Below, in pieces: positions 3,771 to 42,967 of a stretch of 64,000 bases of DNA (positions within the stretch are counted from its first letter, which is position 1; every line of letters starts with the position of its first letter). Below the pieces are notes generated by a model. It did no database searches. It had not been told where the DNA came from and saw nothing but the letters and a program-made list of their open reading frames with translations. The DNA is from a virus. The DNA lies in IMG/VR virus record IMGVR_UViG_3300021399_000016, positions 1,808-65,807 of that record. One strand, 5' to 3'. Position numbers and translations under genes: made by a program.

Positions 3771-3795
3771 TCGTAGAAAAAACATATCCTATAAT
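3771..3795 (+). promoter_or_regulatory. phage promoter-like motif upstream of nuclease-nuclease-RNAP operon
   Basis: TCGTA GAAAAAA CA TAT C C TATAAT; matches the 22-copy consensus. Confidence 0.7.
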
Positions 3796-3858
3796 AGAAG
3801 GAGATAGAATATGACTTATATTTGTCTCCTATTTATTTTGCCTATTTGGAGACTTGAA

Positions 3859-4182: not shown

Positions 4183-4684
4183 GTACTTCTGGCTTAACTA
4201 TGACAAGGAGAAAGCCCTTGCTTATTACAAGAGTCTTCTTGCAAAGAAAGCTGGAACTGAGTACCACGAGATTGCGAAGCAGTGCATTGACCATGGTATT
4301 CAGCTTAAAGGACGAAATACGTTAGCACGTTATGTGAACGATGCTATTGGATTCCGTATGCGTACTGAGCAGTTGCTCGTTTATTCAAAGTATTTCTTTG
4401 GTACTGCTGACGCTATTATATTTCAGGAAAAGGATAAGCTTCTTAGAATCCACGACTTGAAGACCGGCACCATCCCTGCTAAGCTCGACCAGTTACTCAT
4501 CTATGACGCGCTGTTCTGTCTTGAGTATCGGATTGATCCTTCAACGATTAATCATGAGCTTCGGATTTATCAGAATAATGAAATCCTTTCTGACAATCCT
4601 GATGCAGATCAGATCGCACCAATTATGGAAAAGATTCAATCTTTTAACCAGTTCATAGAAGAGTATGAAGAGGGCATAGTGTGA
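4121..4684 (+). CDS. PD-(D/E)xK (Cas4/RecB-like) exonuclease
   Basis: GTADAI...IHDLKTG...QLLIY. Confidence 0.7.
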   Translation: MKWNEHSKLLEGAHAPFGASKYFWLNYDKEKALAYYKSLLAKKAGTEYHEIAKQCIDHGIQLKGRNTLARYVNDAIGFRMRTEQLLVYSKYFFGTADAIIFQEKDKLLRIHDLKTGTIPAKLDQLLIYDALFCLEYRIDPSTINHELRIYQNNEILSDNPDADQIAPIMEKIQSFNQFIEEYEEGIV

Positions 4685-7563
4685 TGGACGAATTATATTT
4701 AGACGACTTAGATTTAAGTGAATTAATAATCGAACATTCTGGAGTCGCTCATGATGAGAATCCGCCAGGACGAGGTTCAGGTAGGTATGCGTATGGTTCT
4801 GGCGACAAACCAAACCAGAGAGAGCCGTTTTCTAATCCATACATTGAGAACATGAGAAAGAACGGATCTTCAGACAAAGAGATCTGTGATCTCATGAAGA
4901 AATCTGGCTTCACTGATGTTGATATTTACAAGAAGCTTCATAAGGCGGGCTGGAAAGACACAGAGATTGCTGAAGGTCTTGACATGAAGACAACTAAACT
5001 TCGTGCTAAGATCAGTATTGCAAAGTATGAACAGCAGGCCAATGATACAGCATCAGCAAGAGCAATGCACGAACAAGGTCTTAGCAACTCAGAGATTGGC
5101 AGAAGACTTGGAGTTTCGGAAGGAACAATCAGGAACTACCTTAATCCTGATATTTCACAGAAGAACGATATTCTTAAAACCACGGCCGATTCGCTTAAAG
5201 ATCTTGTCGCAGAAAAGAAATACATTGATATTGGTCCCGGCGCAGACTTAAGTCTTGGCGTTACTTCAACAAAGCTAGCAACAGCTGTAGCAATGCTTGA
5301 AGAAGAAGGTTACAAGAAGTTCTACGTTTACGAAGAACAGCTTGGCACTGGCAAGAAAACCACTATCACTGTGCTTGCACCTCCAGGCACTACCTATCCT
5401 GAACTAATGAACAATCGCGGTCAGATCAAGACCATCGATAATTATATTCAGGAAGGTGGTGAATTAAAGACTCGTCTCGGTATTGAACCACCAACCAGCG
5501 TTGATTCGTCAAGGATCCAGGTACGTTGGGCTGAAGATGGTGGTACAGACAGAGATGGAACTATAGAGATTAGACGAGGAGTCGAGGACTTGAGCCTTGG
5601 CTCCTCTTCTTATGCTCAGGTTCGTATTGCCGTGGATGGCACACATTATTTGAAAGGCATGGCCATCTATGGTAACGATGATGAGTTTGAACCAGGCAAG
5701 GACATTATATTTAATACCAACAAGAAAGAAGGCACACCTTTAATGCTTGATGATCCTGATGCTAAACAGGTATTCAAGCATTTAAAAGATGACCCCGACA
5801 ATCCCTTTGGCGCTTCTATAAAGATCAAAGATGGAAAGGTTGTTGGTCAGAGACACTACACTGGTGAGGATGGAAAAGATCACCTATCACCAGTCAACAT
5901 CATTAGAGAAGAAGGTGACTGGTCCGAATGGAGTAAGACACTTGCTTCTCAGATGCTGTCCAAACAGACGCCAGCATTAGCAACCAAACAGTTGAGGCTT
6001 GCTTATGAACAGAAGAAGGAAGAGTTTGAGGACTACATGTCTCTTACTAATCCAACTGTGAAGAAGAAGCTTCTTGAGGGCTTTGCTGAAGGTTGTGATG
6101 CAGCGGCAGTAAACTTGAAGGCGGCAGCTCTTCCTGGACAGCAGAACTATGTTATCTTACCTGTTCCTTCCATGAAGACAACTGAGATCTATGCACCTCG
6201 TTATGATAACGGTACTGAGTGTGTACTTATTCGTTACCCTCATGCTGGTCAGTTTGAGATCCCAAGACTAATTGTCAACAATAAGAATGCTGAAGCTAAG
6301 TCATTCATGTACAACGCAAAGGATGCCGTTGGTATTGCACCAAAGGTAGCCGAGCAGTTGTCTGGTGCAGACTTTGATGGTGATACTGTTCTTCTCATTC
6401 CTACCGCTAGACCTGATGGTACACGCATCTCTGATGTAAGAAACAAGAAGGCTATTCAGGAACTTGTGGACTTTAACCCCAAGATGTATGAGTATCCTGA
6501 TGGTGTCGAGCATAAGAAGATGAGCGACCACACTAAACAGGTTCAGATGGGTATGGTTTCGAACTTGATCACGGACATGACCATTGGTGGTGCATCACCA
6601 GAGGAGCTTGTGCGTGCAGTTAAGCACTCAATGGTGGTAATTGATGCACAGAAGCATGGTCTGAACTACAAGCAGTCAGAGAAAGACAATCGTATCGATG
6701 AGCTTAGACAGAAGTACCAGGCTAAAGAGAACGGCAAGGCAGGCGGTGCTAGTACTATCATTAGTAGGGCCTCTGCCGAACAAAGAATAGGGGTACGTAA
6801 AAGAAACTGGAAGCCCGATGCCGAAACAGGTGAGGTTACTTACAGAGAAACTCCTGAATACATTACTACAAGAAAAGTAATGCCTGATGGAACTGTCAAG
6901 GAAGAGACCAGGGAGCGTACTATAAAGACTACCCGGATGGCTTATGAAAAGGACGCCCGTAATCTAATGAGCGGCCCCAATCATGAAGGAATGCCAATCG
7001 AGAGGATCTACGCCAAGTATGCCAACGACATGAAGGCACTTGCAAACCAAGCACGTAAGGAAGCTCTGGATACCCCGCTTCTTCAAACCTCCCCCTCTGC
7101 TAAAAAGGTCTATGCTGCAGAAGTAGAGTCCTTGGAGAACAAGCTTAGGGAAGCCAAAAGTAACGCACCTAGAGAAAGACAGGCTCAGATACTAGCAAAT
7201 GAGTTCATGCGAGCTAAGAGAAAAGACGATCCTAATATGGATGCAGATCATCTCAAGAAAGCTAAGTCGTTGGCCCTTGCTAATGCAAGAGACATTGTTG
7301 GTGCTAAGAAGACAAAGATTGAGATAACAGACAAAGAATGGCAAGCTATTCAGTCTGGTGCTATTAGTGACAACAAATTACGTCAGATTCTTAACAATGC
7401 TGATGACAAAGCAATTAAACAGCTTGCTATGCCAAGAACAAACAACGAACTTAGCAATTCAAAACAAAGTTTAATTAAATCTATGAGTAGTTCAGGTTAT
7501 TCAATTGCCGAAATTGCTGAACGTTTAGACGTTTCTAGTTCGACAGTTAGCAAATACCTGTAA
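4681..7563 (+). CDS. putative single-subunit two-barrel RNA polymerase (YonO/cellular RdRP-like) with N- and C-terminal HTH domains
   Basis: DGTIEI, QVR..LKG, RYP, LSGADFDGD (6370-6384), GMVSNL, VIDAQKHG in the order seen in cellular RdRP/YonO; HTHs GLSNSEIGRRLGVSEGTIRNYL and GYSIAEIAERLDVSSSTVSKYL. Confidence 0.75.
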   Translation: MMDELYLDDLDLSELIIEHSGVAHDENPPGRGSGRYAYGSGDKPNQREPFSNPYIENMRKNGSSDKEICDLMKKSGFTDVDIYKKLHKAGWKDTEIAEGLDMKTTKLRAKISIAKYEQQANDTASARAMHEQGLSNSEIGRRLGVSEGTIRNYLNPDISQKNDILKTTADSLKDLVAEKKYIDIGPGADLSLGVTSTKLATAVAMLEEEGYKKFYVYEEQLGTGKKTTITVLAPPGTTYPELMNNRGQIKTIDNYIQEGGELKTRLGIEPPTSVDSSRIQVRWAEDGGTDRDGTIEIRRGVEDLSLGSSSYAQVRIAVDGTHYLKGMAIYGNDDEFEPGKDIIFNTNKKEGTPLMLDDPDAKQVFKHLKDDPDNPFGASIKIKDGKVVGQRHYTGEDGKDHLSPVNIIREEGDWSEWSKTLASQMLSKQTPALATKQLRLAYEQKKEEFEDYMSLTNPTVKKKLLEGFAEGCDAAAVNLKAAALPGQQNYVILPVPSMKTTEIYAPRYDNGTECVLIRYPHAGQFEIPRLIVNNKNAEAKSFMYNAKDAVGIAPKVAEQLSGADFDGDTVLLIPTARPDGTRISDVRNKKAIQELVDFNPKMYEYPDGVEHKKMSDHTKQVQMGMVSNLITDMTIGGASPEELVRAVKHSMVVIDAQKHGLNYKQSEKDNRIDELRQKYQAKENGKAGGASTIISRASAEQRIGVRKRNWKPDAETGEVTYRETPEYITTRKVMPDGTVKEETRERTIKTTRMAYEKDARNLMSGPNHEGMPIERIYAKYANDMKALANQARKEALDTPLLQTSPSAKKVYAAEVESLENKLREAKSNAPRERQAQILANEFMRAKRKDDPNMDADHLKKAKSLALANARDIVGAKKTKIEITDKEWQAIQSGAISDNKLRQILNNADDKAIKQLAMPRTNNELSNSKQSLIKSMSSSGYSIAEIAERLDVSSSTVSKYL

Positions 7564-7575
7564 GAAGGAGGACGT

Positions 7576-7815
7576 ATGGCTAAAGAGTATATGCTCACCA
7601 CGGTCGATAACCCATACGACCCCTTCACTCATTTCGATGAATGGCTTCGTTACGACATTGGAAAAGGCTACAACACATGCAATTACTTAGCAAGAGTTGT
7701 ACAAACATCCAATGAATTGAGTGATGAAATGAATGATCGTGCAATCAATGACGCAATTGATGAGATCTGTGAATACAATTGGCTTGGAATCTATAAGAAA
7801 GTAGCCAAGGACTAA
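7576..7815 (+). CDS. small hypothetical protein (MLTTVDNPYDPF)
   Basis: Strong RBS AAGGAGG directly after RNAP gene. Confidence 0.75.
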   Translation: MAKEYMLTTVDNPYDPFTHFDEWLRYDIGKGYNTCNYLARVVQTSNELSDEMNDRAINDAIDEICEYNWLGIYKKVAKD

Positions 7816-7873
7816 GCCGTTTGTATTCACATAGGGAGGGGGGGGGTCTTTACAAGTCCTCCCCTCTTTCGAT

Positions 7874-7882
7874 CGGCGGCCT
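7874..7882. other. candidate cos site (CGGCGGCCT)
   Basis: GC-rich 9-mer between G/C tracts in the non-coding gap before terminase-small/HNH genes; resembles recalled 9-nt overhangs of syntenic actinophages. Confidence 0.5.
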
Positions 7883-7919
7883 CTTGATATTTTCTCCGGG
7901 GGTGGTTTTTTGGAAATCG

Positions 7920-8032
7920 TTTTGGGAGGGCATAGGCTTAGGTGCCTTCTGGTTTGTGGTGATCCAGGTTCTCCTTTCCTCTGAGATATTCTTCTCAGGG
8001 TGGCTCTTGGCCGGGTCTATGTCCTGCCAAAA
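7920..8032 (+). ncRNA. long structured RNA/leader upstream of packaging genes
   Basis: TTTTGGGAGGGCATAGGCTTAGG pairs with CCGGGTCTATGTCCTGCCAAAA using several G-U pairs; inner hairpin CTGAGA/TCTCAG. Confidence 0.4.
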
Positions 8033-8065
8033 CTATTCCCAAAGTAGTTGAAAGGAGTGATGTTC

Positions 8066-8410
8066 ATGGCTAAAACCACGTCAAAAGGCCAGAGATCCTC
8101 AGGTAAGATACCAGCATTCTCCTCGGAGGAGCAGGAGAGTAGGTTGGTTGCTCTAGCTTGGGATCTTGCTGAGGAAAAATTAAGGGATGGATCTGCATCT
8201 AATCAGCTAATCTGTCAGCTTCTTAAGGCTGGTTCTGCGAAAGAGAAGCTTGAAAAGGATATTCTCCGGCAGCAGAAGGACCTTATGGAGGCTAAGACAG
8301 AGGCAATTAAGTCAGCTAAGCATATTGAGGAACTTTATGCTAATGCGCTTAAGGCAATGCAGTCATATTCTGGTCAGCCGGTTGAGGTAGATGATGAAGA
8401 GTTATTCTGA
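8066..8410 (+). CDS. probable terminase small subunit
   Basis: Helical protein, first gene after candidate cos, upstream of HNH and TerL; RBS AAAGGAG. Confidence 0.45.
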   Translation: MAKTTSKGQRSSGKIPAFSSEEQESRLVALAWDLAEEKLRDGSASNQLICQLLKAGSAKEKLEKDILRQQKDLMEAKTEAIKSAKHIEELYANALKAMQSYSGQPVEVDDEELF

Positions 8411-8816
8411 GATGATGACTCTTCCGACATTTGATGAGCGTTTTAAGTATTTAAAGCTCAACGGAAAGGTGGCAGCGGAGACATTTGGTTGTCACAGATA
8501 TTTGAACCAGGTTTTGTATAGATCTGGCGAGTGGAAGAGGTTTCGGAACAAGATCATCATTAGAGACGATGGTTGTGATCTAGCTGATAAGGATAGACCA
8601 GTCGAGGGGCAGAAGATTCTAATACACCATCTTAATCCTCTGACTATTGATGACGTTGTAAACCGTGATCCGAAGATATTCGATCCAGAGAATGTTGTCT
8701 GTGTTTCGTTTGATACGCATCAGGCGATCCATTACGGCGACGAGAGGTATTTAACATGTAATAAGTTTGCGGACAGGAAACCTAACGATACTTGTCCGTG
8801 GAGGAAGCTCACATGA
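8391..8816 (+). CDS. HNH endonuclease (packaging-associated)
   Basis: RDDGCD...IHHLNP...ENVVCVSFDTHQAIH. Confidence 0.8.
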   Translation: MMKSYSEMMTLPTFDERFKYLKLNGKVAAETFGCHRYLNQVLYRSGEWKRFRNKIIIRDDGCDLADKDRPVEGQKILIHHLNPLTIDDVVNRDPKIFDPENVVCVSFDTHQAIHYGDERYLTCNKFADRKPNDTCPWRKLT

Positions 8817-9178
8817 GTGTAATCACAGACAGCATTCTTCTATCAGTTAAGAAGATGCTAGGACTAGATCAGGACTACGACGTCTTCGATCCAGAGTTAA
8901 CTATCTACATTAACTCTGTATTTGGTACGTTACATCAGCTGGGTGTAGGACCGACCACTCAGTTTAGAATCTCAGACGATACAAGTACTTGGTCTGAGTT
9001 CACAACAAATGAAGTAGAAATCGAAGAAGTAAAGACATACGTTTATTTGCGGGTTCGACTTTTGTTTGACCAACCATCAAGTTCCTTTGTCCTTAGTTCA
9101 TTCCAGGAACAGATAAAAGAATTGGAATGGAGACTAAATGTAAAGTCTGATGAAATAAAGGGGACTGGCGATGAGTAA
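8813..9178 (+). CDS. head-tail connector-like protein
   Basis: SILLSVKKMLG...KTYVYLRVRLLFD...ELEWRL; position in head module. Confidence 0.5.
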   Translation: MSVITDSILLSVKKMLGLDQDYDVFDPELTIYINSVFGTLHQLGVGPTTQFRISDDTSTWSEFTTNEVEIEEVKTYVYLRVRLLFDQPSSSFVLSSFQEQIKELEWRLNVKSDEIKGTGDE

Positions 9179-9479
9179 GACAGAGATCATCATGACAATT
9201 ATTTGTGCAATCTTTTCTTCTGTTGGGTTCTGGACTTTTGTGAATAATGTTTATCAGAACATTAGGGAACGCGAGAGTGCAGAACGAAAAGCTCTTTTAG
9301 GGCTTCTTCATGAGAAGCTAGCTGAGAGAGCCTCAATGTTTATTAGTCGTGGAGCAATTACACGACAAGAGTATGAGGATTTCATAAAGTACATTTATGA
9401 TCCATACGTCGGTCTGGGAGGAAACGGAACTGGCGAGAAGCTTAAGAAAGAAGTAGATGATCTGAGACTAGTTAGTTAA
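9171..9479 (+). CDS. membrane protein, holin-like
   Basis: N-terminal TM segment; YDPYVGLGGNGTG motif. Confidence 0.5.
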   Translation: MSKTEIIMTIICAIFSSVGFWTFVNNVYQNIRERESAERKALLGLLHEKLAERASMFISRGAITRQEYEDFIKYIYDPYVGLGGNGTGEKLKKEVDDLRLVS

Positions 9480-9484
9480 CGGAG

Positions 9485-10777
9485 GTGATAAAAATGCAAG
9501 GTTTGATTTCGGATGAACTTTATCACCACGGTATTCTTGGAATGAAATGGGGCGTAAGGCGTTACCAGAATGAGGACGGTTCCCTCACAGATGCCGGGCG
9601 TAAACGTTATACAAAGCTTACTAACAGAGTTAATAAACTTCGCACGAAAGCTGAGAAATACGATAAGAAAGCTGCTAAGGCCGAGAGAAGTGCTCATCGT
9701 TTTTGGTTTAGAGATGCCGAGGCTGCTTACGCTAAATATTCTAAGTTTAAGTACAAAGCTGAAGCAGCGAGAACCAAGGCCGATAAAATCGAGAAGAAGG
9801 TTAACGAATTAGCTAGAAACACTAGCATGAGAGAAGTTAACGGTATTCCTGATAGTATCAGGCGTGGAGTCTCTATCGTCGATAAAGTAAAGAGTGGATT
9901 GGACGAACGTAATCGTCAGAAAAAGATCGCGGAAGCGGCAGAAAAGCGTAAGGCTACAATAGAGGCTAAGAAGGCACATGCGGCAGAGAAGGAAGAAGCT
10001 CTTAGAAGTGGAGACCCTAATAAGGTTTCAAAATTTCAAAATGAGCTTACTAACGATGAATTAAGAGCTGCAACCGATCGTATTCGATTAACTGAAACTC
10101 TTAGAAGCCAGAGCGAAGCTAGAGTTAAGACAGGACTAGATAAGGCTGAGGAAATTATGGGCAAAGTTTCTAAAGCTAAAGATATTGCTGAACGCGGAAT
10201 TAGTGCATGGAATACGGCTGCGAAGATCCATAACTCTTTTGTTAATGAAAAAGAGAAGTGGCCCGTGATCGATGGAAGCGGAAAGAAGGAAGACAGATCT
10301 GCTATTAAGAAGACCATTGAGAGCGGAGATCCCGAGCAGATTGCTAAACTTAAAGGAAAGCTTTCTGTAAGTGAGACTTCTGATGCTGTCAAGTCGATCA
10401 ACAACTGGAAGAATATTAATGAAAATGCCGATAAGAATAGGCAGGCTAGAGCTGATGCTGAGTACCAAAAGAAGGAATCCGCAAGAGAGGCGGAAAAGCA
10501 GAGAGATCTGAACAGAGAGAAAATGTTTAGTCAGCGTGACTCTTTCGAAAGGAAGGAAGCGTCTAGAAGAGAACAGGAATCATTTGATAAAGAATACGAA
10601 GATGGCGTAAAAGCTGCTAGAGAGGCATTCAAAAGATATAGAGAATCTTCTCGTTCAAATACTACTGTAGAACCGACTTCTAGATTCGATCCCGATGATA
10701 GAGCGACTCCTCAAATGAGAATCGGCCAAGAGATAACTAAACAGTTACTTCTTGAAATGAAGAAAGATAAAAAATGA
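9485..10777 (+). CDS. coiled-coil protein with HHGILGMKWGVRR N-terminal motif (possible internal virion protein)
   Basis: DELYHHGILGMKWGVRRYQNEDGSLT then K/E/A/R-rich helices. Confidence 0.65.
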   Translation: MIKMQGLISDELYHHGILGMKWGVRRYQNEDGSLTDAGRKRYTKLTNRVNKLRTKAEKYDKKAAKAERSAHRFWFRDAEAAYAKYSKFKYKAEAARTKADKIEKKVNELARNTSMREVNGIPDSIRRGVSIVDKVKSGLDERNRQKKIAEAAEKRKATIEAKKAHAAEKEEALRSGDPNKVSKFQNELTNDELRAATDRIRLTETLRSQSEARVKTGLDKAEEIMGKVSKAKDIAERGISAWNTAAKIHNSFVNEKEKWPVIDGSGKKEDRSAIKKTIESGDPEQIAKLKGKLSVSETSDAVKSINNWKNINENADKNRQARADAEYQKKESAREAEKQRDLNREKMFSQRDSFERKEASRREQESFDKEYEDGVKAAREAFKRYRESSRSNTTVEPTSRFDPDDRATPQMRIGQEITKQLLLEMKKDKK

Positions 10778-10786
10778 GGATGAGTA

Positions 10787-12529
10787 ATGCTATCAAACAC
10801 AGCTACTCCTTATTATTATGGTTTGTTTAGAGAATCGGTGATTAGAGGAGAGATTCCTGTTTGCAGAGAAATCTCTATGGAGATGAACCGGATCGATAAA
10901 CTGATTGATGACCCTGGAGTTTGGTATGATAGAGACCCTGTTGAAGGCTGGATTCGTTATTGCGAGAACGAACTGACACTTACAGACGGTGGCGATCTTC
11001 ACCTATTAGATACATTTAAGCTTTGGGGAGAGCAGGTTTTTGGCTGGTACTACTTTATCGAACGATCCGTATACGAACCGAACGAAGATGGTCATGGCGG
11101 TCACTACGTTCGTAAGCTTATAAAGAAGCGACTTATCAATTACCAGTATCTGATAATTGGTCGAGGCGCTTCTAAGTCTATGTACGCTTCCTGCATTCAT
11201 TCTTACTTCTTAAACGTCGACACTTCTACAACAAAGCAAGTCGCTACGGCTCCTACAATGAGTCAGGCTGATGAAACTCTCTATCCGATCAGAACTTCCA
11301 TCGTTCGTGCTCGCGGACCTCTTTTTCAGTTCTTAACTGAAGGCTCACTTCAAAATACGACAGGTTCCAGAGCTAATAGGCAGAAGTTAGCGTCGACTAA
11401 GAAGGGTATCGAGAACTTTCTAACTGGCTCTCTTCTTGAAGTTAGACCTATGTCCATCGATAAGCTTCAGGGTAGAAGAGATAAGGTTGCTTCTGTTGAC
11501 GAGTGGCTTTCTGGAACTATCAGAGAAAACCCGATAAACGCTTTAGCTCAGGGTGCAGCTAAGAATGATGACTGGCTTATCGTCGCGACATCTTCCGAGG
11601 GAACGGTAAGACACGGAATTGGTGATGATATTAAGATGGAGCTAATGGAGATTCTTAAAGGAGAGTATGAGAATCCCCACGTATCTATCTGGTATTACAA
11701 ACTTGACGACATAGAAGAGGTTGGTAATCCTTCTATGTGGAGAAAAGCCAATCCCAATCTCGGAAAGACTGTTACTTATGAAACCTATCAGCTTGAAGTT
11801 GAGAAAGCCGAGAGGGTTCCATCATCCAGGAACGAGATCCTGGCAAAAAGATTCGACATTCCCATGGAAGGTTACACTTTCTTCTTTACTTATGAAGAAA
11901 CACTTCCGCATAGAAGAAGATCTTTTAAGAGACTTCCTTGCGCTCTAGGCGCTGACCTTTCTAGGGGTGACGACTTTTGCGCATTCACATTTCTGTTTCC
12001 GTTATCTGACGGATCGTTTGGCGTTAAGGTTAGATCATACATCACATCCTATACACTCGATCAACTCCCAAGAGCAATGCGAGAAAAGTATAACGATTTC
12101 ATCAATGAAGGTACGCTCATAATTATGGAGGGTACCGTTCTTTCCATGATGGAAGTTTACGAAGATCTTGACGACCACATTGTTCGGATGGATTACGATG
12201 TGCGGACGTTTGGTTTTGACCCTTATAATGCCACAGAATTTGTGGAGCGCTGGTGCAGAGAAAATGGGGAATTTGGAGTTTGTAAAGTGATTCAGGGATC
12301 TAAAACGGAGTCTGTTCCTCTTGGAGAACTTAAGAAGTACGCCGAGCAGCGTATGCTTCTCTTTGATGAAGAGCTTATGACTTTCACTATGGGTAACTCT
12401 GTGGTCCTTGAAGATACGAACGGTAACCGTAAACTTTATAAGGAGCGCAGAGATCAGAAGATCGATAACGTGGCGGCCATGATGGACGCTTATGTTTCGT
12501 ATAAGCTGAATACTGATGCGTTTGAGTGA
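10787..12529 (+). CDS. terL: terminase large subunit
   Basis: IIGRGASKS Walker A, VDEW Walker B, GADLSRGDDF nuclease motif, FDPYNA, KIDNVAA. Confidence 0.92.
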   Translation: MLSNTATPYYYGLFRESVIRGEIPVCREISMEMNRIDKLIDDPGVWYDRDPVEGWIRYCENELTLTDGGDLHLLDTFKLWGEQVFGWYYFIERSVYEPNEDGHGGHYVRKLIKKRLINYQYLIIGRGASKSMYASCIHSYFLNVDTSTTKQVATAPTMSQADETLYPIRTSIVRARGPLFQFLTEGSLQNTTGSRANRQKLASTKKGIENFLTGSLLEVRPMSIDKLQGRRDKVASVDEWLSGTIRENPINALAQGAAKNDDWLIVATSSEGTVRHGIGDDIKMELMEILKGEYENPHVSIWYYKLDDIEEVGNPSMWRKANPNLGKTVTYETYQLEVEKAERVPSSRNEILAKRFDIPMEGYTFFFTYEETLPHRRRSFKRLPCALGADLSRGDDFCAFTFLFPLSDGSFGVKVRSYITSYTLDQLPRAMREKYNDFINEGTLIIMEGTVLSMMEVYEDLDDHIVRMDYDVRTFGFDPYNATEFVERWCRENGEFGVCKVIQGSKTESVPLGELKKYAEQRMLLFDEELMTFTMGNSVVLEDTNGNRKLYKERRDQKIDNVAAMMDAYVSYKLNTDAFE

Positions 12530-12533
12530 AGAC

Positions 12534-13448
12534 ATGAGAGATGATATTTATGTTGGTGCTCTTTTTTCTGAAGAATATTTAATGCACCATGGAATTAAGG
12601 GTCAGAAGTGGGGCGTTAAACATGGACCGCCATATCCTCTTGATTCTAGCGTATCTAAGCGAGTGAAAAGCGGTAAAGATATAAGAGTTGCTAGTGGTAA
12701 GGATAATAAAAAAGATCCGGATTTACATAATAAAAAAGGTAGCAATAGAGAAGCGTATAAAATGGCTCTTAATATTGCGCTTGATGTGGCTACGTTAAAT
12801 CCTATTTGGGCTGTTCAGGATGCTGTTAGATTAGGTCAATATGCGTCTTCAAAAGTGAAGGCTAAAAACATTGCTAAACGTCAGTCTTTCGAAGAAATCG
12901 ATAAGAAAACCGGATTCCATAAAAAGTCAAAAGAAATGACTATGGACGAAGATGTTAAAAACGTGAATCCTAATTTTCATAACTTCAACAGCAATACGAA
13001 GAATAACTGTATGCTTTGTACGGTTACTTATGATATGAGAAGAAGAGGATATGACGTTACTGCTGAATTAGCAGGAAAAGGCTATGACTATAATTCTGTT
13101 AAGCAATGGTATCCAAAAGCTAAGATAGTAGATGTACGAGGCGGAAATCAGTCAGTTGCTAGAACGGCAATGCTTGGCGATAAGCGGTTGATGGATAATA
13201 CTAAGAGCGAAATCGAGAAGCAGCCAAACGGAGCTAGAGGAAATCTTATGGTTCAATGGTCAAATTTTCAGGGCGGTCACTCAATGGCTTATGAAGTGAT
13301 TGACGGAAAGATGCACATATTCGACGGGCAGACAGGAACGCACTATACGAATCCAGATAAAATTCTTAGACAGTGCAGACAAGTTTCTTATGCGAGATTA
13401 GATAATATTGAACCTGATTACAAGAGGGTAAAGGAGTGTTGCAAATGA
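12534..13448 (+). CDS. HHG-motif protein with C-terminal papain-fold (glutamine-deamidase-like) toxin domain
   Basis: YLMHHGIKGQKWGV leader; NNCMLC...GGHSM...IFDGQTG Cys-His-Asp triad. Confidence 0.65.
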   Translation: MRDDIYVGALFSEEYLMHHGIKGQKWGVKHGPPYPLDSSVSKRVKSGKDIRVASGKDNKKDPDLHNKKGSNREAYKMALNIALDVATLNPIWAVQDAVRLGQYASSKVKAKNIAKRQSFEEIDKKTGFHKKSKEMTMDEDVKNVNPNFHNFNSNTKNNCMLCTVTYDMRRRGYDVTAELAGKGYDYNSVKQWYPKAKIVDVRGGNQSVARTAMLGDKRLMDNTKSEIEKQPNGARGNLMVQWSNFQGGHSMAYEVIDGKMHIFDGQTGTHYTNPDKILRQCRQVSYARLDNIEPDYKRVKECCK

Positions 13449-13702
13449 TTACACCGTCAGAGGCTCTGAATAAGCTGAAGAAGAAGGAACCGTTGCTTAC
13501 CATAGTTGGCATGGTTGATTATAGCTCTAAATATTATCTTATTTCGGCAGTAGAAAATCCGAATATGCCGAATTTTAGCGGTAATTATTACGCTGTAGAT
13601 AAGAGGACCGGAGCCATTAGTTATTATACTCCTGGAGCTGATTTCGATAATTTCTTTGATGCCATTAATAATCGTGTCATCGATATCACCAAATTGAGGT
13701 AA
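13445..13702 (+). CDS. putative immunity protein
   Basis: Small ORF overlapping the toxin stop; YYAVDKRTG motif. Confidence 0.45.
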   Translation: MITPSEALNKLKKKEPLLTIVGMVDYSSKYYLISAVENPNMPNFSGNYYAVDKRTGAISYYTPGADFDNFFDAINNRVIDITKLR

Positions 13703-13711
13703 AAATTCAAA

Positions 13712-14980
13712 ATGCCAAAGTTTATGGAGCGTGTCCAGAATGCCTGGAACGCTTTTTTAAGTAGAAGCCCCACCGTTACTTATGATTATGGCGGTTTTGG
13801 CTACAGACCTGACAGAGTTAGGCTAAGCAGAAACAATGAAAGAACAATCGTAGCATCAATCTACAATAGAATCGCTTTGGATTGTGCAATGATTGACCTT
13901 CATCATGTAAATTGCGACGAAGACGGAAACTACAAAGAGATTAGAAAATCTGGACTCGAAAACTGTTTGACTACCAGCGCAAATCTGGATCAGACAGGTC
14001 GAGCTTTTATTATTGATGTGGTTATGTCTATGTTTGATGAAGGCTATGTTGCTGTGTTTCCAACAGATTGTTCTGATAATCCTTACTATACGGCTGACTA
14101 CGAGATCTTGAAGCTTAGAACTGGAAAGGTCATAAGTTGGTTTGCTGATAGGGTTAGGATTGATGTTTACAATGAGCGTCTTGGACGAAGAGAAGAAATC
14201 GTGGTTCCAAAGACTCATGTCGCGATTATTGAGAATCCTCTTTACGCGATCATGAATGAACCGAATGGAACTCTTCAGAGACTTATTAGGAAGCTAAGTC
14301 TCTTGGACTATGTGGACGAACAGACTAGTTCCGGAAAGCTCGACTTAATTATTCAGCTTCCTTACGTTATCAAGACGGAAGCCAGAAGGCAGCAGGCAGA
14401 AGAGCGTCGTAAAGACATTGAACGCCAGCTTTCTGGTTCTAAATACGGTATTGCTTATACTGATGGTACGGAGAGGATCACTCAGCTTAATCGTGCAGTA
14501 GAGAATAACCTCTGGGTGCAGGTAAAAGACTTGACAGCTATGCTCTACAACCAGTTGGGACTCACTGAGTCTATTCTTAATGGCACGGCTAAAGAGGAGG
14601 AAATGATCAACTACTATAACCGAACTGTCGACCCGATTCTTGCAGCAATCGCAGAGGAGATGCAACGAAAGTTTATTTCTCCAACTGCTAGGACTCAGGG
14701 TCAGGCAATTAAGTACTTTAGAGATCCGTTCCGTCTTATTCCGGTTAGCGCTATTGCGGAGATCGCAGATAAGCTTACTAGAAACGAGATTCTTAGCTCC
14801 AACGAGATCAGAACGAAGATCGGCTTTAGACCTTCTAGCGATCCGGCTGCTGATGAACTCCGTAACAGTAACCTTAATCGATCTGATAACGAGAAACCGG
14901 CAGAAGCGCCAGAAGCTAACAGAAAGGCTGCGACGCAGAAAGCTTTGAAGGAGAAAAATCAAAATGGCGAGAAAGTATGA
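13712..14980 (+). CDS. portal protein
   Basis: 422 aa between TerL and capsid; IYNRIALD...NEIRTKIG HK97-like portal pattern. Confidence 0.88.
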   Translation: MPKFMERVQNAWNAFLSRSPTVTYDYGGFGYRPDRVRLSRNNERTIVASIYNRIALDCAMIDLHHVNCDEDGNYKEIRKSGLENCLTTSANLDQTGRAFIIDVVMSMFDEGYVAVFPTDCSDNPYYTADYEILKLRTGKVISWFADRVRIDVYNERLGRREEIVVPKTHVAIIENPLYAIMNEPNGTLQRLIRKLSLLDYVDEQTSSGKLDLIIQLPYVIKTEARRQQAEERRKDIERQLSGSKYGIAYTDGTERITQLNRAVENNLWVQVKDLTAMLYNQLGLTESILNGTAKEEEMINYYNRTVDPILAAIAEEMQRKFISPTARTQGQAIKYFRDPFRLIPVSAIAEIADKLTRNEILSSNEIRTKIGFRPSSDPAADELRNSNLNRSDNEKPAEAPEANRKAATQKALKEKNQNGEKV

Positions 14981-16769
14981 CTTCGCAGGTTGGGCGACAA
15001 AGAACGATCTCCTCTGCACCGACGGACGGACGATCAGAAAAGACGCCTTTAAAGATTGCGATGGGATTACGGTTCCGCTTGTTTACCAGCATGATCATAA
15101 AGATCCTACAAACGTCCTTGGACACTGTCTCTTAGAGAACAGAGCCGAGGGCGTTTATTGTTACGGATATTTTAACGATTCTGAAAAGGCTAGACACGCT
15201 AAGGAGTCTCTTAAGAACAAGGATATTACTAGACTTTCTATTTATGCGAATCACCTTAAGCAGAACGCTGGAGACGTTCTTCACGGAATGATCAGAGAAG
15301 TAAGTCTTGTACTCACCGGAGCAAATCCGGGAGCGAAGATTGAGACTGTTCTCGGTCATGCTGAAGAATTTGACGAGGAGGCCGTAATCACCACAGGAGA
15401 GGAGTTAGTAACCGATATGGAAGACGAGAACATCGTTGTTCATGCAGACGAAGAGGCCGACTCTAAGCCGAAGGAGACAGAAGAGTCTGGTGATTCCGAT
15501 GAGACTATTGAAGATGTGTTTAACACTCTGAACGAGAAGCAGAAGAAAGCCGTTTATGCGCTTATTGGTCTTGCTATTCAGGACAAAGGCAAGAATGACG
15601 GCGAAGCAAAACATTCCGAAGATGAAAATGAAGGAGAAGAAGATATGAAGTACAACGCTTTTGAAGGTGGCGCTCCGAGAAAGACTACTATTTCTCACGA
15701 CGATTTTAAGGTAATCATGGCTGATGCCAAGAGATGCGGTTCCCTTAAGGAAGCGGTCCTTGCGCACATGGAAGATGAAGATGGTGTTCTTGCACATCTT
15801 GATCCTGAAGTTACTGAGGGTATGACCCTTTCCCAGGACAAGCAGAACTACATGGTGAACGATCCGGCTTTCCTGTTCCCGGATTATAAGTCTCTTAACA
15901 ATCCGCCCGAGTACATTAAGCGAGATACCGGATGGGTTTCTAAGGTTATGGGTAAGGTTGGACATACTCCGTTTGCTCGTATTAAGTCCGTGTTTGCCGA
16001 TATCACTGAAGACGAAGCAAGAGCAAAGGGTTACATGAAGACCAATCTTAAGAAAGACGAGGTCTTCAGCCTGCTTAAGAGAACCACCGATCCGCAGACC
16101 GTCTACAAGAGACAGAAGATGGACCGTGATGATATTATCGATATCACCGACTTTGATGTTGTTCGTTGGATCAAGGCTGAGATGAGAGAGATGCTTAATG
16201 AGGAAATCGCTCGTGCCATCCTCATCGGCGATGGTCGTCTCAACTCTTCCGACGATAAGATCTCCGAGGATCACATCCGTCCGGTTGTTTCCGATAAGCC
16301 GCTCTTCACTGTTAAGGTCGATGTTGAGGTTGCTGCTGACGCTAAGCCCTCTGATATCGCAGAAGAGTTCATCGATCAGGCTATCAGAGCTCGTAAGCAG
16401 TATAAGGGTTCTGGTAATCCGGATCTTTATACCACTGAGGACATGCTCACCGAGATGCTCCTTCTTAAGGACGGTATCGGTCACAAGCTTTACAAGACCG
16501 AGCAGGAGCTCTGCACTGCTCTTCGTGTGAATTCTATTATTACCGTTGAGGTCATGGAAGGCTTCAAGCTTGATAATAAGGATTTCCTTGGAGTTATTGT
16601 TAACCTTGCTGACTACAGAGTTGGTGCTGACAAGGGTGGCGCTCTTGAGCTGTTCGATGACTTCGATATTGACTACAACCAGTACAAGTACCTGCTTGAG
16701 ACTCGTATCTCTGGTGCTCTGGTGAAACCGTTCTCTGCGCTGTCCTTCACTGTTAAGAAGACGGCTTGA
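14964..16769 (+). CDS. prohead protease - scaffold - major capsid protein fusion
   Basis: Protease motifs VPLVYQHDH, LSIYA, EVSLVLTGANPGA; acidic linker; HK97-like capsid C-terminus (EEIARAILIGDG, ETRISGAL). Confidence 0.88.
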   Translation: MARKYDFAGWATKNDLLCTDGRTIRKDAFKDCDGITVPLVYQHDHKDPTNVLGHCLLENRAEGVYCYGYFNDSEKARHAKESLKNKDITRLSIYANHLKQNAGDVLHGMIREVSLVLTGANPGAKIETVLGHAEEFDEEAVITTGEELVTDMEDENIVVHADEEADSKPKETEESGDSDETIEDVFNTLNEKQKKAVYALIGLAIQDKGKNDGEAKHSEDENEGEEDMKYNAFEGGAPRKTTISHDDFKVIMADAKRCGSLKEAVLAHMEDEDGVLAHLDPEVTEGMTLSQDKQNYMVNDPAFLFPDYKSLNNPPEYIKRDTGWVSKVMGKVGHTPFARIKSVFADITEDEARAKGYMKTNLKKDEVFSLLKRTTDPQTVYKRQKMDRDDIIDITDFDVVRWIKAEMREMLNEEIARAILIGDGRLNSSDDKISEDHIRPVVSDKPLFTVKVDVEVAADAKPSDIAEEFIDQAIRARKQYKGSGNPDLYTTEDMLTEMLLLKDGIGHKLYKTEQELCTALRVNSIITVEVMEGFKLDNKDFLGVIVNLADYRVGADKGGALELFDDFDIDYNQYKYLLETRISGALVKPFSALSFTVKKTA

Positions 16770-36083: not shown

Positions 36084-37436
36084 ATGGCAGATATTTCTCA
36101 AATCACATTGCCTTCTGGTACTACTTATAATTTAAAAGATGCCCAGGCAAGGTCTGACATTGAAACCATTCAGTCGTCACTTACTGGTGGTATGCACTAC
36201 ATTGGTGTTACTACTACAGCGATTAGTGATGGCGATACAACGAATCCTGTTAAAATTAATGACGCAGATACCACTGCTAAGAATGGTGATCTTGTTATGT
36301 ACGGAGACCTTGAGTTCGTATGGTCTACTGCTGATAACAAGTGGCACGAGTTTGGTTCTACGGGATCTCTTAAGGCTTTAGCATTTAAGGACACGGCTTC
36401 TGCTAGTTATAAGCCTGCTGGTAGTGTGTCTAAGCCGACGTTTACTGGATCCGAATCTACTGTTACAGTTACTGTAGCAAGCAATACATCTGGTAACTAC
36501 ACACCTGCTGGTACTGTGTCTAAGCCTACCTTTACGGGCGCTTCTATGACGTCGACCGGTGCGTTTACTCCTGCAGGAACGGTATCTGTCAGTACAAAGT
36601 CAACCACTAACGCTACAGCTACAGTCAGTGCGGCATCTTCTGGTACAGCGACTTATACCCCTGCTGGATCTGTTTCGCAGCCGACTTTCACAGGTACTGC
36701 ATTTGATTCGTCTGGTAGCTTTACACCTGCTGGAACGGTTGCATTCACAAACACTAATAAGACTACTACTGTGTCAAAAGCGTCTTCTGGAGACGCGACG
36801 TATACCCCTGCCGGAACGGTTGCAGCCCCTACAATTTCTGTTAAGACTGCCGGAACCACTACAACCGTTCATAATCCTACTTCAGTTACAGTCGCAAAGA
36901 CTGTTGTTGCGGCTGCTCCTGGTGCCACAGCTCCTGCTAACGCTTTGACTTATTATGCTGTATCAGGTGAAGTTCTTAGTCTCTATCAGCTTGGGTACAC
37001 TACTGGTGCGTCTATTACAACCTCTAATGTGACGGTTAAGACTGGAGACGCTGCATATCAGGCTAGTGCTCCTGCCTTCACTGGTACTGGTGCAAGGCTT
37101 GTTACGGGTAACATTCCTGTTCCGACTAGTGCATCGTTTACTGGAACCGAGGGTACTGTGACCGTATCTGGTACTGCTACAGGTACCGTATCTAAGCCTT
37201 CGTTTACTGGTACTGGTGCAAGACTTGTTACTGGTAATATCGCTGTTCCGAGCGCATATACCGCCACATTTACCGGTACAGAGGGAGATGTATCTGTGTC
37301 TGGTACCACGACCGGATCTGTCTCTCAGCCGACCTTCACCGGTACTAAAGTTCTGATTTCTGGTAAGACCACTGCTGCAGGTAGCGTTTCTCAGCCAACC
37401 TTCACTGGCACTCAGGCGACGATCACAGTTTCATAA
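36084..37436 (+). CDS. Thr/Gly/Ser-rich repeat fibre protein
   Basis: Many (Y/F)TPAG(T/S)VSxPTFTG repeats. Confidence 0.7.
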   Translation: MADISQITLPSGTTYNLKDAQARSDIETIQSSLTGGMHYIGVTTTAISDGDTTNPVKINDADTTAKNGDLVMYGDLEFVWSTADNKWHEFGSTGSLKALAFKDTASASYKPAGSVSKPTFTGSESTVTVTVASNTSGNYTPAGTVSKPTFTGASMTSTGAFTPAGTVSVSTKSTTNATATVSAASSGTATYTPAGSVSQPTFTGTAFDSSGSFTPAGTVAFTNTNKTTTVSKASSGDATYTPAGTVAAPTISVKTAGTTTTVHNPTSVTVAKTVVAAAPGATAPANALTYYAVSGEVLSLYQLGYTTGASITTSNVTVKTGDAAYQASAPAFTGTGARLVTGNIPVPTSASFTGTEGTVTVSGTATGTVSKPSFTGTGARLVTGNIAVPSAYTATFTGTEGDVSVSGTTTGSVSQPTFTGTKVLISGKTTAAGSVSQPTFTGTQATITVS

Positions 37437-40381: not shown

Positions 40382-40470
40382 TTATTGGCTTATGAGCTTT
40401 CGGCGGTAGGTCGTAATTTTTTCAATTCGTATAATAGCAAATTAACTTTTTATTCGAAAGGAGAATAAGC

Positions 40471-40803
40471 ATGGAAAATACAATGGTTAATGTTTCTGAA
40501 AAAACCGAAATGGAGAAACTCATCGATTGGCTTAGTGAGAATTTGGATGGCAAATTCCGTCTTAAGCAGCGCTATATTAACGGTGGATCACAGGTGATGA
40601 TCTTCGATAGTAAAGGCGACTATCTTTGGGACGCGATTTGTAACAACATGTCTTACGGACGTGAAGATGGACTTATCGAGGTTATGGAACACACCGTTAA
40701 CAACTATGTGCTCACGGAAGAAGAAAGGAGTTACGACGACGTTTTGGGTTGGCTTACAGCCCAGGATATAATCGACAGATTAGAGGGTAAGAGCTCTGAG
40801 TAA
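40471..40803 (+). CDS. cassette hypothetical protein
   Basis: Own promoter, RBS and terminator; DAIC..SYG.EDGLIEVM..DDVLGWLTA. Confidence 0.75.
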   Translation: MENTMVNVSEKTEMEKLIDWLSENLDGKFRLKQRYINGGSQVMIFDSKGDYLWDAICNNMSYGREDGLIEVMEHTVNNYVLTEEERSYDDVLGWLTAQDIIDRLEGKSSE

Positions 40804-40867
40804 AATCAGGGCTTTTTCTTTTTGCTCGTATATTTTTCAACTCCTTTAATGAAGGAGGTAAAATCAA

Positions 40868-41050
40868 ATGTCTAATGAAGAGTTAGAAGTAAAGGTGCAA
40901 AATCTGGAAAAACGATTAACACAGTTAGAAGGATATTTTAAATCTTTATGTTACAGAATTAGATTTGAGCAAACCGGAAACGAAGAGTTTTTAAAGAAAG
41001 CTAAAGAAGAAACAGAATTAACAGATTGGTTAATAAAGAATTGGCTCTGA
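40868..41050 (+). CDS. cassette small coiled-coil protein
   Basis: Promoter 40826, RBS AAGGAGG, terminator. Confidence 0.7.
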   Translation: MSNEELEVKVQNLEKRLTQLEGYFKSLCYRIRFEQTGNEEFLKKAKEETELTDWLIKNWL

Positions 41051-41128
41051 TTAATTTCAGGGCTCTTTTCTTTTTCGCAAAATTTTCATCTCCTATTATA
41101 GAAAATATATTCAGAAAGGAGATTTGTT

Positions 41129-41323
41129 ATGAGAACATTAAAAGTAGTACCGTATTCGCCTGCGGAGGATAAATTTGTAAACAAGCTTATGCCTGTTTGT
41201 AAAGATAAAGTTGTCTGCAGACTTGGAGCACTTTTTGGATGGCCATATAACGAATACGTTATAACTGAAGAAGATTTTCAACGGATAAAAACAGAAATTT
41301 TAAAAGAAAAGAAGGAGTCCTGA
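41129..41323 (+). CDS. cassette hypothetical protein
   Basis: Promoter 41075, RBS, terminator. Confidence 0.7.
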   Translation: MRTLKVVPYSPAEDKFVNKLMPVCKDKVVCRLGALFGWPYNEYVITEEDFQRIKTEILKEKKES

Positions 41324-41345
41324 ACAAGGGCTTTTCTTTTTGCTC

Positions 41346-41387
41346 TCGAACAAAGTGAGAGGGCCGTTGAGTGTAACGAAACAAAAC
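41346..41387. repeat. 42-bp double-hairpin repeat, copy 1
   Basis: TCGAACAAAGTGAGAGGGCCGTTGAGTGTAACGAAACAAAAC; near-identical at 46328 and 60595. Confidence 0.8.
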
Positions 41388-41409
41388 AACTTTGAAAGGA
41401 GAAAACCAC

Positions 41410-41658
41410 ATGAGAAGTAAGCCAATTTGCCCTGACACAAGAAAATGTTTTGGAAGAAAAGCTACATCTGACGTTTGTAATGTATTAAGATCTGACGAAC
41501 ACGGAAGGTTTTATAAGAAAGACAGAGAGTGTCCTTTTTGTAAGCCCGAGAGAGACAAAACAGACGGAAAGAAGTACCCCATGATGTATGGAGAGAATCC
41601 GGGCTATATCAAAATGCCAAAGGATGATCCGGATTGGAGCAATGATGGAAAGATCTGA
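41410..41658 (+). CDS. Cys-rich hypothetical protein
   Basis: C..CF..C.VL..CPFCK; RBS AAAGGAG. Confidence 0.65.
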   Translation: MRSKPICPDTRKCFGRKATSDVCNVLRSDEHGRFYKKDRECPFCKPERDKTDGKKYPMMYGENPGYIKMPKDDPDWSNDGKI

Positions 41659-41866: not shown

Positions 41867-41996
41867 AATTTTCCCGGTGGGAGTTTTTAGGAAATGATTT
41901 CAAGCATATGGGTTACAGCTTTCTGTGGTACTTTGGTATTCGTAAAAATTTCACCTCGTATAATGCAAACTGTTGTTTAATTCAAAGGAGGGAACT

Positions 41997-42887: not shown

Positions 42888-42967
42888 CAGTGCTTATTTC
42901 TTTTTCTTTTCGTTCAAAATTTACAACGCCTTTAATGACAATGAAAACAATTTAAAGGAGGTAAAGG

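Follow-up and report, generated by a model that had tools for sequence, protein, structure and literature searches.

The cut motif of gp21, the head protease of phage T4, is (L/I)-x-Glu, and the sites of the herpesvirus assemblin have the form (V/L)-x-A|S. In T4, internal proteins are made with a short leader, the capsid targeting sequence (CTS), which takes them into the procapsid and is removed by the prohead protease (accessible part of PMC3012670). In phage SPN3US, the head protease processes many of the ejection proteins inside the head, recognising a single short motif (accessible parts of PMC7411985 and PMC10052503). Here we describe a putative counterpart of the T4 system in a gut phage, analysed in a window of 64,000 nucleotides (bases 1808-65807 of the 65,807-bp IMG/VR virus record IMGVR_UViG_3300021399_000016, a record with direct terminal repeats; all positions given below are those of the window). 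The window constitutes most of a 65.8-kb siphovirus genome that belongs to a lineage including Lactococcus phage 1706, Faecalibacterium phage FP_oengus and an actinophage supercluster, and its + strand carries nearly all of the genes. The system in question comprises a protease-capsid fusion protein, two head-module proteins carrying a tag of the Pfam family DUF7211 and, possibly, a phage-encoded RNA polymerase (RNAP).

To our knowledge, the carriage of a phage's own RNAP into the host has so far been tied to N4-like and crAss-like phages and to a few Thermus phages. The polymerase YonO of SPbeta transcribes late genes, and we know of no report that it is packaged. For a siphovirus, the accessible part of one study describes a virion RNAP that transcribes the pre-early genes (10.1101/2022.12.01.518664). 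The putative RNAP of the present lineage has been noted before: the accessible part of a preprint gives an HHpred match to PF05183, a DxDGD motif, a likeness to YonO and helix-turn-helix (HTH) domains at both ends, and states that the RNAP is co-inherited with head genes in actinophages, 1706-like phages and FP_oengus, while the same part mentions neither an N-terminal leader nor His sites nor promoters (10.1101/842583).

The best overall explanation of our results is a T4-like capsid-targeting and trimming system that would be run by the capsid-fused S78 protease, to which we assign a probability of roughly 0.55. Its core is a short pattern, the upstream half of a putative cleavage site up to and including a His, [DE][DE]-x-hydrophobic-[LI]-x-H, which at the level of sequence is the part common to three classes: the sites in the spacer of the capsid precursor, the DUF7211 tags and the leader of the RNAP. 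Downstream of the His each class has its own sequence: the spacer continues with A/S-D/E, DUF7211 with [HY]-G-[IV]-x-G-x-K-W-G, and the RNAPs with Y-G-x-x-R-x-S-G-R-Y. The original prediction, made from the letters of the DNA, had described an acidic-hydrophobic-x-His signature shared by these proteins; the pattern is real, but the form given here describes it better. A translation check found every string quoted in that prediction at its place in the RNAP, the two head-module proteins and the six spacer sites, and its gene identities agree with the PHROG, Pfam and Foldseek results.

The S78 protease, an acidic scaffold-like spacer and an HK97-type capsid domain are made as one chain. In the mechanism that we propose, [DE]-x-hydrophobic-[LI]-x-His would be the cleavage site of the protease inside the procapsid, the bond after the His being the most likely one; we place the cut there because the shared part lies on the N-terminal side, as it does in the sites of T4 gp21 and assemblin. 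Six cuts would free the protease, divide the spacer into pieces of 28, 57, 28, 23 and 10 residues, and leave a capsid protein of 323 residues. At the level of sequence, the same half-site opens a tag of roughly 25 residues on a coiled-coil protein and on a toxin-like protein, with a variant on the RNAP. This tag would take the proteins into the procapsid, as the T4 CTS does, where the protease would remove the short acidic part upstream of the His, and the cargo would later be ejected with the DNA. A more speculative step is that the injected RNAP, with its two sigma-region-4-like HTH domains, would transcribe early genes from about 20 promoters lacking a -35 box. That the sites and the tag together form a protease-linked head-cargo system seems to us somewhat probable, and that the RNAP is among the cargo falls a little short of even odds.

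The capsid precursor is a protease-capsid fusion of 601 residues encoded at 14964-16769 (+ strand). Its residues 1-128 (14964-15347) form an S78 prohead serine protease domain, recognised by PF04586 (27.7 bits, cut-off 21) and phrog_3270 (727.6 bits), in which H43, H45 and S114 are invariant in 44 sequences. Residues 279-601 (15798-16769) form an HK97-type major capsid domain, assigned through phrog_10 and phrog_7080 ('major head protein'); PF05065 reaches 18.6 bits on it, under its cut-off of 24.2. Relatives are annotated 'major capsid and protease fusion protein', and the domains, the conserved His and Ser residues and the PHROG matches identify the protein as an S78 protease and an HK97 capsid protein fused in one chain. 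Between the two domains lies the acidic scaffold-like spacer (residues 129-278, 15348-15797, + strand), supported by islands of His conservation and a shuffle test, with six sites of the L-x-H type: VLGH132|AE, IVVH160|AD, EAKH217|SE, TISH245|DD, VLAH268|ME and VLAH278|LD, whose His codons start at 15357, 15441, 15612, 15696, 15765 and 15795, respectively.

In this spacer, position -2 holds L/I/V/M/F/Y at five of the six His residues and position +2 holds D/E at all six, properties that were matched together by 2 of 100,000 composition-preserving shuffles of the spacer. When the window protein was aligned with its best 120 homologs (56-97% identity) of 8000 scored, the His residues turned out to be conserved as islands: H132 and H160 are present in all 121 sequences, H245 in 118, H268 in 115, H278 in 107 and H217 in 64. 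The flanking residues vary freely; H160, for instance, is preceded by EENIK, EEKLS, VISLY or EIYLS. Among related spacers, this contrast between an invariant His and variable flanks is the telling feature. The 738 His sites of 116 unique spacers have D/E at -5 in 61% (background 27%), L/I/V/M/F/Y at -2 in 86% (background 24%), A/G/S at +1 in 60% (background 20%) and D/E at +2 in 77% (background 27%), percentages that are non-independent counts, the sequences being related.

It could be argued that a His followed by an acidic residue is to be expected in a spacer of which 27% is D/E, and that the likeness to the N termini of other proteins is coincidental. Consistent with this, high-scoring sites are only modestly enriched over the whole genome, with three at the strictest threshold against 0.61 expected and a maximum of five in 200 shuffles. 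This explanation, however, is contradicted by the conservation of an invariant His between variable flanks in 121 sequences, and it has to face the rarity of matching shuffles, the presence of the leader in 120 of 120 RNAPs and the recurrence of the same pattern in four named phages of other host genera (1706, Mudcat, ReqiPepy6 and Schwartz33). We therefore regard chance or composition as having a nearly negligible probability.

The positions of the sites fit the processing of the fusion. An AlphaFold2 model of the whole precursor is of moderate quality (predicted local distance difference test, pLDDT, 60.3) and was used for the positions of disorder and helices only. It has residues 105-180 and 206-241 below a pLDDT of 50 and helices at residues 182-209 and 245-270, which would place H132, H160 and H217 in disordered stretches, H245 and H268 at helix ends, and H278 just before the capsid domain. 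The putative sites are located exactly where the fused S78 protease would have to cut, namely at the end of the protease domain, between the conserved helices and before the capsid domain, and the mature capsid protein is predicted to start after His278. Neither the capsid precursor nor the RNAP gave a match in sequence searches of solved structures, and a complex prediction that paired protease residues 1-128 with residues 1-60 of the toxin-like protein (score 0.04, mark 0.32) bears neither way.

The tag is found on two proteins of the head module. The first is a K/E-rich coiled-coil protein of 430 residues (9485-10777, + strand), encoded between the connector gene and the gene for the large terminase (TerL); its N-terminal tag covers residues 8-28 (9506-9568) and includes DELYH14|HGILGMKWG, with His14 at 9524-9526. 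The second is a toxin-like protein of 310 residues (12516-13448, + strand; alternative start at 12534), encoded between TerL and the portal, with the tag at residues 18-41 (12567-12638), EEYLMH24|HGIKGQKWG, and His24 at 12585-12587. Both leaders belong to DUF7211 (PF23847), a 25-position Pfam family without assigned function, in which the tagged pair reaches the gathering score of 27 bits: the coiled-coil protein scores 36.8 bits by hmmscan and 40.8 bits in the genome search, and the toxin-like protein scores 26.2 bits by hmmscan, just under the cut-off, and 30 bits in the genome search, over it. The general form of the tag is ...YL-x-H-[HY]-G-[IV]-x-G-x-K-W-G-V. A literature search found no paper naming DUF7211, and the GMKWG motif turned up only in unrelated work. 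A further string, 'MSVEEAH|MS' at the start of the open reading frame (ORF) at 8792, was rejected as a site; it probably lies upstream of the true start, since the Pfam match begins at residue 15.

With 42 residues of the window tag as query, 3857 cluster representatives were retrieved at E<=0.001. Applying the strict pattern to 146 new top representatives, the best of these 3857, we found 20 without such a tag, 35 with one and 91 with two to five, spaced about 130-650 residues apart. The first tag lies within the first 60 residues in 106 of 126 of them, and L or I occupies position -2 in 255 of 258 tag sites. Among the modules that lie between tags, GNAT acetyltransferases, 2H phosphoesterases and papain-fold toxins of the Gln_amidase family were recognised, together with a P-loop NTPase and a transglutaminase-like domain; many others are of no known kind. 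In these proteins the tag behaves like a module junction. Tags that open every module of a polyprotein are what would be expected of processing sites, and they would be harder to explain as a purely N-terminal signal.

A different reading of the tag is that it is never cut and acts as a docking peptide, its 25 or so residues binding a common partner such as the portal, the capsid interior, the scaffold helices or a host factor; the spacer repeats would then be elements of self-interaction or of a scaffold, and the His would be structural, bind metal or sense pH. Encapsulin cargo-loading peptides, which are Gly-rich and bind HK97-fold shells uncut, offer a parallel. In favour of this reading, H25, G26, I27, G29, K31, W32, G33 and GPPYP are invariant in 35 sequences, and His245 and His268 flank predicted helices. 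The residues after the His (G, K-W-G and GPPYP) are better conserved than those before it, so that the His could belong to a binding motif instead of marking a cleavage point, which counts against cleavage. On the other hand, the spacer, the RNAP leaders and DUF7211 have the upstream half and the His in common, not the downstream half; the spacer must leave the protease-capsid fusion, and H132 (after the protease) and H278 (before the capsid domain) bracket it exactly; and the tags recur at the module junctions of polyproteins. On balance, an uncut docking peptide appears improbable to us.

That the three classes share one half-site was examined with two reciprocal matrices. The first, built from positions -6 to 0 of 62 distant RNAP leaders, was used to scan the 311 His residues in 106 ORFs of the window, and it ranked capsid H278, toxin-like H24 and coiled-coil H14 in the first three places, with H268 fifth; the leader site of the window's own RNAP, which is the most degenerate of its family, fell below the top 30. 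The second, built from 135 spacer sites of capsid homologs at most 66% identical, was used to scan the 296 His residues outside the capsid gene and placed coiled-coil H14 first and toxin-like H24 fifth. Two of the best spacer-type sites outside the head module occur in a 305-residue protein at 61256-62173 (phrog_2152), DDLDIMH|DE at residue 69 and KEKMLQH|EF at residue 223; this protein could be a further cargo, or its sites could be due to chance.

The toxin-like protein has a putative papain-fold toxin-like domain at about residues 163-300, on which PF15644 (Gln_amidase) scores 23.0 bits, under its cut-off of 24.1, and relatives reach 25-40 bits; the columns NNC..C, GGHS and D.Q are conserved in its alignment. 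This domain is homologous to the C-termini of MuF-like minor capsid fusions, which are head-internal proteins, and its homologs in Arthrobacter and Mycobacterium phages are annotated as MuF-like minor capsid protein, capsid maturation protease or VIP2-like toxin. Pfam and PHROG scans detected no MuF family on the protein itself, which places it outside the MuF-toxin fusions. The end of the gene is overlapped by an ORF of 88 residues (13436-13702, + strand) that gave no Pfam or PHROG hit and matches gp19 of Gordonia phage Schwartz33 in BLASTP (E 9e-7). There, gp19 follows gp18, which is tagged and is a full-length homolog of the toxin-like protein. The 88-residue ORF product is a candidate immunity or partner protein. 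The pair kept as Schwartz33 gp18/gp19 (7986-9067 of the Schwartz33 locus) resembles a toxin-immunity-style pair within the head module.

The product of 4681-7563 (+ strand; 960 residues, phrog_4291, 1102 bits) is a single-subunit two-barrel RNA polymerase of the QDE-1/YonO type. Its catalytic motif ADFDGD lies at residues 563-568 (6367-6384), with A563, D564, D566, G567 and D568 invariant in 40 sequences, and sigma-region-4-like HTH domains at residues 113-155 and 924-960 match HTH families over their cut-offs; PF05183 (RdRP) scores 17.9 bits, under its cut-off of 23.8. The AlphaFold2 model is confident (pLDDT 83.5; predicted template modelling score 0.73). In Foldseek its closest match is QDE-1 (2j7n, E 1.5e-8), and it also matches plant RDR2 and the Thermus phage RNAPs 8f72, 8f5m and 8h2m, with a probability of 1.00 to QDE-1, RDR2 and the Thermus phage enzymes, and the match to gp66 of the crAss-like phage phi14:2 (6vr4) is weak (E 0.014). 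The DxDGD loop and the double-psi beta-barrel thus place the enzyme in the QDE-1/YonO-like branch of the two-barrel RNAPs.

The N-terminal leader of the RNAP covers residues 1-41 (4681-4803, + strand). It consists of an acidic stretch, the site SELIIEH19|SG, a second site of the spacer type, GVAH24|DE, and then NPPGRGSGRYAYGSG. In the model, residues 1-38 are predicted to be a disordered tail outside the polymerase fold (pLDDT 35-42), and H19, G21, S33, G34, R35, G39 and G41 are invariant in 40 aligned homologs. We surveyed the best 120 homologs of 1088 proteins at E<=0.001, down to about 40% identity, and the leader is present in all 120. Its form is ...L-x-H-[YS]-G-...-SGRY-x-[WY]-GSG, the motif running on as ...SGRYPWGSG. 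H-x-G occurs within the first 90 residues in 118 of them, with the His at residues 5-40 (median 11); position -2 in 104 unique contexts is L in 81%, I in 16% and F in 3%, and positions -4 to -6 are acidic. In the remaining two (P0068 and P0076, 1045 and 1054 residues), a 2H (LigT-like) phosphoesterase domain precedes the polymerase, and the leader, L-x-H-[YI]-G, stands exactly at the junction of the two, at residue 169. The enrichment of the motif across homologous genomes, which the original prediction had proposed as a check, was found both in the RNAPs and in the His islands of the 121 capsid spacers.

Many RNAP leaders are near to DUF7211, for example ...EENYLMH-YGI..., compared with ...EEYLMH-HGI... 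in the window. An HMM of the DUF7211 segment had its best match in the first 45 residues for 107 of the 110 RNAPs giving any hit, and 55-64 of the 120 RNAPs scored above the 99th percentile of 2400 shuffles. A tblastn search with the first 120 residues of the RNAP gave no match, the leader being too short for BLAST. As far as its sequence goes, the RNAP leader is a relative of the tag and not a member of DUF7211. The prediction that a His-specific maturation signal would mark the RNAP and the other proteins for packaging is partly supported, in that at the level of sequence one conserved site is common to the coiled-coil and toxin-like proteins, the RNAP and the spacer, in which it lies where the S78 protease must cut.

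A promoter-like motif of about 30 nt, TCGTA-W7-CA-N5-TATAATG-CAAAC, with a perfect -10 and no -35 box, bears on the role of the RNAP. TCGTA-W7-CA-N5-TATAATG has 20 matches in the window against 0.31 expected, all on the + strand: 16 copies at 40411-48283, in the early region, three at 60045-60876, and one variant copy (TCGTAGAAAAAACATATCCTATAATA) at 3771-3796, upstream of the endonuclease, exonuclease and RNAP genes. The core WCA-N5-TATARTR has 17 matches in the window against 1.25 expected. Each copy stands between a terminator hairpin and a ribosome-binding site, which makes the early region a series of single-gene cassettes; terminator-like hairpins are enriched there (32 against 7.4 expected), and canonical -35/-10 pairs are not (22 against 25.8 expected). 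The late region of the window (4.7-40 kb) contains no copy. A gap of about 230 nt, 7815-8048, separates a small ORF after the RNAP from the first head-module genes (the ORF at 7821-8051 looks spurious); it is a possible place for a late promoter, and the early motif is absent from it.

The core also occurs in relatives, as ACA-N5-TATA(A/G)T, with 9 forward-strand copies in Schwartz33, 13 in 1706 (as TATAGT), 7 in Mudcat and 15 in ReqiPepy6, against 0-2 on the reverse strand and in controls. The exact long pattern is not shared, since among the relatives only Mudcat matched CGTA-N4-8-CA-N5-TATAAT. In Mudcat, Schwartz33 and ReqiPepy6, a variant copy is found near the right end of the genome, at a distance of about 4 kb at most; the RNAP gene of Mudcat and of its actinophage relatives is located at this end, and the Mudcat copy lies about 0.9 kb upstream of that gene. 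That phages infecting Firmicutes and phages infecting Actinobacteria have an upstream element in common suggests that it is recognised by the one transcription protein that they share. This points to a phage-encoded polymerase acting on early genes, which would have to arrive with the DNA, and offers new, indirect support for injection of the RNAP.

It is, on the other hand, conceivable that the head-module system is real and that the RNAP is no cargo but a middle- or late-gene polymerase made in the cell, like YonO of SPbeta, its L-x-H-Y-G leader serving regulation or cytoplasmic trimming or being a relic of an old fusion. Several observations lean towards this alternative and weigh against the role that we propose for the RNAP. 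The gene lies directly upstream of the late, structural genes on the same strand, as expected for a YonO-like late-gene polymerase, and the -10 of the motif is a perfect TATAAT of the sigma-A type, so that the host polymerase may use these promoters; the gut relative MT835495 has no enrichment of the promoter core. The record of phage 1706 applies the label structural protein to ORF7 and to ten further products, and it does not call the RNAP (ORF75) structural. A search of the genome with DUF7211 returned only two matches at E<=1, neither of them at the RNAP; the similarity between the RNAP and DUF7211 extends over only about 10 residues, on and just around the His; and the RNAP sites of the window rank only 16th and 25th of 296 under the spacer matrix. 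For the processing system as a whole, H217 (EAKH|SE) is a weak site, with A at -2 and kept in only 64 of 121 sequences, we know of no prohead protease with His at P1, and our literature search found no experiment on the tag system.

Against an RNAP that stays in the cell stand the presence of the leader in 120 of 120 homologs from phages of two host phyla, with L/I/F at -2 in 104 of 104 unique contexts, the position of the leader in a disordered segment outside the fold, and its occurrence at the 2H-polymerase junction in two homologs, as the tag occurs in polyproteins. Moreover, a promoter copy precedes the RNAP operon itself, and the absence of family promoters from the 4.7-40 kb late region implies that the conserved promoters are early or middle, not late. 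We consider a polymerase made in the cell and not packaged rather unlikely.

A search for near-identical DNA with the region of the finding returned no match among annotated phages, and a related-locus search with the single RNAP as query returned one close relative only. At the protein level, the RNAP (250 records) and the protease-capsid fusion (244 records) co-occur in the same annotated phages, with identical counts per genus: Arthrobacter 95, Gordonia 55, Streptomyces 54, Lactococcus 13, Curtobacterium 7, Microbacterium 4, Rhodococcus 4 and Faecalibacterium 2. Four named phages illustrate how the pattern recurs. ORF7 of Lactococcus phage 1706, which lies between connector and terminase like the coiled-coil protein of the window and is annotated 'structural protein', has two tags (...ILQH-RGVIGMRWG and ...ILLH-KGVKGMKWG), and its annotation is the one hint that tagged proteins may occur in virions; the 1706 RNAP starts with ...EDDSLQH-YGTKRHSGRYPWGSG, and the capsid spacer of this phage has six [LIM]-x-H sites. 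In Arthrobacter phage Mudcat the site is present on the RNAP, on gp07 (two tags), gp09 and gp11 (EDFLEH-YS), and seven times in the spacer. Mudcat gp11 (7406-8017 of the Mudcat locus) is a K/E-rich protein of 204 residues encoded between the portal and the capsid precursor, which has the half-site and lacks the remainder of the DUF7211 tag; it may act as a scaffold-like protein in its own right, and it has no counterpart in the window. In Rhodococcus phage ReqiPepy6, seven genes that follow one another between those for terminase and portal open with D-x-D-x-F-L-A-H-Y-G-V-K-G-M-K-W-G, and gp013 has an internal DUF7211 tag behind a 2H-like domain. Literature searches on ReqiPepy6, phage 1706, Arthrobacter cluster AM, Curtobacterium phage and actinophage RNAP yielded nothing on the tag or on a virion RNAP of this lineage.

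Extended to the whole lineage, our reading is that the His-site tag addresses a QDE-1-like RNAP and a changeable set of enzymes to the capsid, that the capsid-fused S78 protease would trim these after the His, that they would be injected, and that the RNAP would start the infection from ACA-N5-TATAAT promoters independently of the host enzyme. The reading would extend from this gut phage to FP_oengus, to the 1706-like phages of dairies and to actinophages, several hundred in number, whose hosts represent at least six genera; we advance it tentatively. Besides the RNAP, the cargo of the lineage may comprise toxin-like deamidases, GNAT acetyltransferases and 2H phosphoesterases.

The remaining genes of the region are arranged around those discussed above. 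Genes for an endonuclease (start 3811) and an exonuclease (start 4121) precede the RNAP gene; an HNH gene (start 8391) and the connector gene (start 8792) precede that of the coiled-coil protein; and the TerL gene (start 10787) and the portal gene (start 13712) enclose that of the toxin-like protein. At 36399-37408, tandem-like repeats of about 50 nt encode the peptide ...PAG(S/T)VS(K/Q)PTFTG, probably part of a tail fibre or receptor-binding protein.

If the proposed system is verified, DUF7211 gains a function, as an address and processing tag for head cargo, and a simple rule becomes available to predict injected proteins. For HK97-type prohead proteases, cleavage after His would be a new specificity, and hundreds of readily cultured actinophages from teaching collections, together with dairy phages, would carry their own RNAP into the cell. 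The list of cargo, with its 2H phosphoesterases, acetyltransferases and deamidases, resembles host-takeover or anti-defence enzymes, and the tag would offer a means of detecting proteins of this kind and of filling capsids with foreign ones.

Among the known systems, several share single features with this locus. Like YonO of SPbeta, the RNAP is a single-subunit RdRP-like polymerase with DxDGD. Of the virion RNAPs compared (N4 vRNAP, phi14:2 gp66 and the tape-measure-fused enzyme of Thermus phage P23-45), gp66 and the P23-45 enzyme share with it the two-barrel superfamily (Foldseek hits 6vr4 and 8h2m); in the present case, however, packaging is inferred from a tag, and the RNAP is a free protein of 960 residues with an HTH at both ends and not part of a tail tape or a giant ejection protein. 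The MuF-toxin fusions of temperate phages are polymorphic toxins on a head-internal MuF/SPP1 gp7 domain. They share with the toxin-like protein the C-terminal domain and the conservation of a small downstream partner gene, but here a 25-residue tag takes the place of the MuF domain. DUF7211 itself covers only part of the system, since the RNAP variant and the spacer half-sites lie outside the family model. In HK97, with its delta domain, and in giant phages such as phiKZ and SPN3US, a head protease also removes a scaffold-like N-terminal part of the capsid protein; the protease families and motifs are different there, and here protease, scaffold and capsid are one chain.

The closest parallel is the CTS of T4, which is carried by IPI-III and Alt and removed by gp21. 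As in T4, a short N-terminal leader occurs on unrelated proteins: one leader is found on the three proteins of the window and on the products of the seven ReqiPepy6 genes, with varied C-terminal domains. The leader may also end, as the T4 leader does, in the type of site at which the head protease would cut scaffold and capsid; what it shares with the conserved spacer sites is the upstream half-site. The cargo is diverse and would be ejected with the DNA, as it is in T4. The differences are that the protease is of the S78 (HK97) type and fused to the capsid protein, and not gp21; that the proposed P1 residue is His; that the conserved tag extends beyond the site by about 15 residues, which the mature protein would keep; that tags also occur inside polyproteins; and that the phage is a siphovirus of Gram-positive hosts. 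Relative to T4 targeting and to head-protein processing in giant phages, what would be new in this lineage is the family of the protease, its fusion to the capsid protein, the proposed specificity for His, a tag that would mostly be retained, and the cargo.

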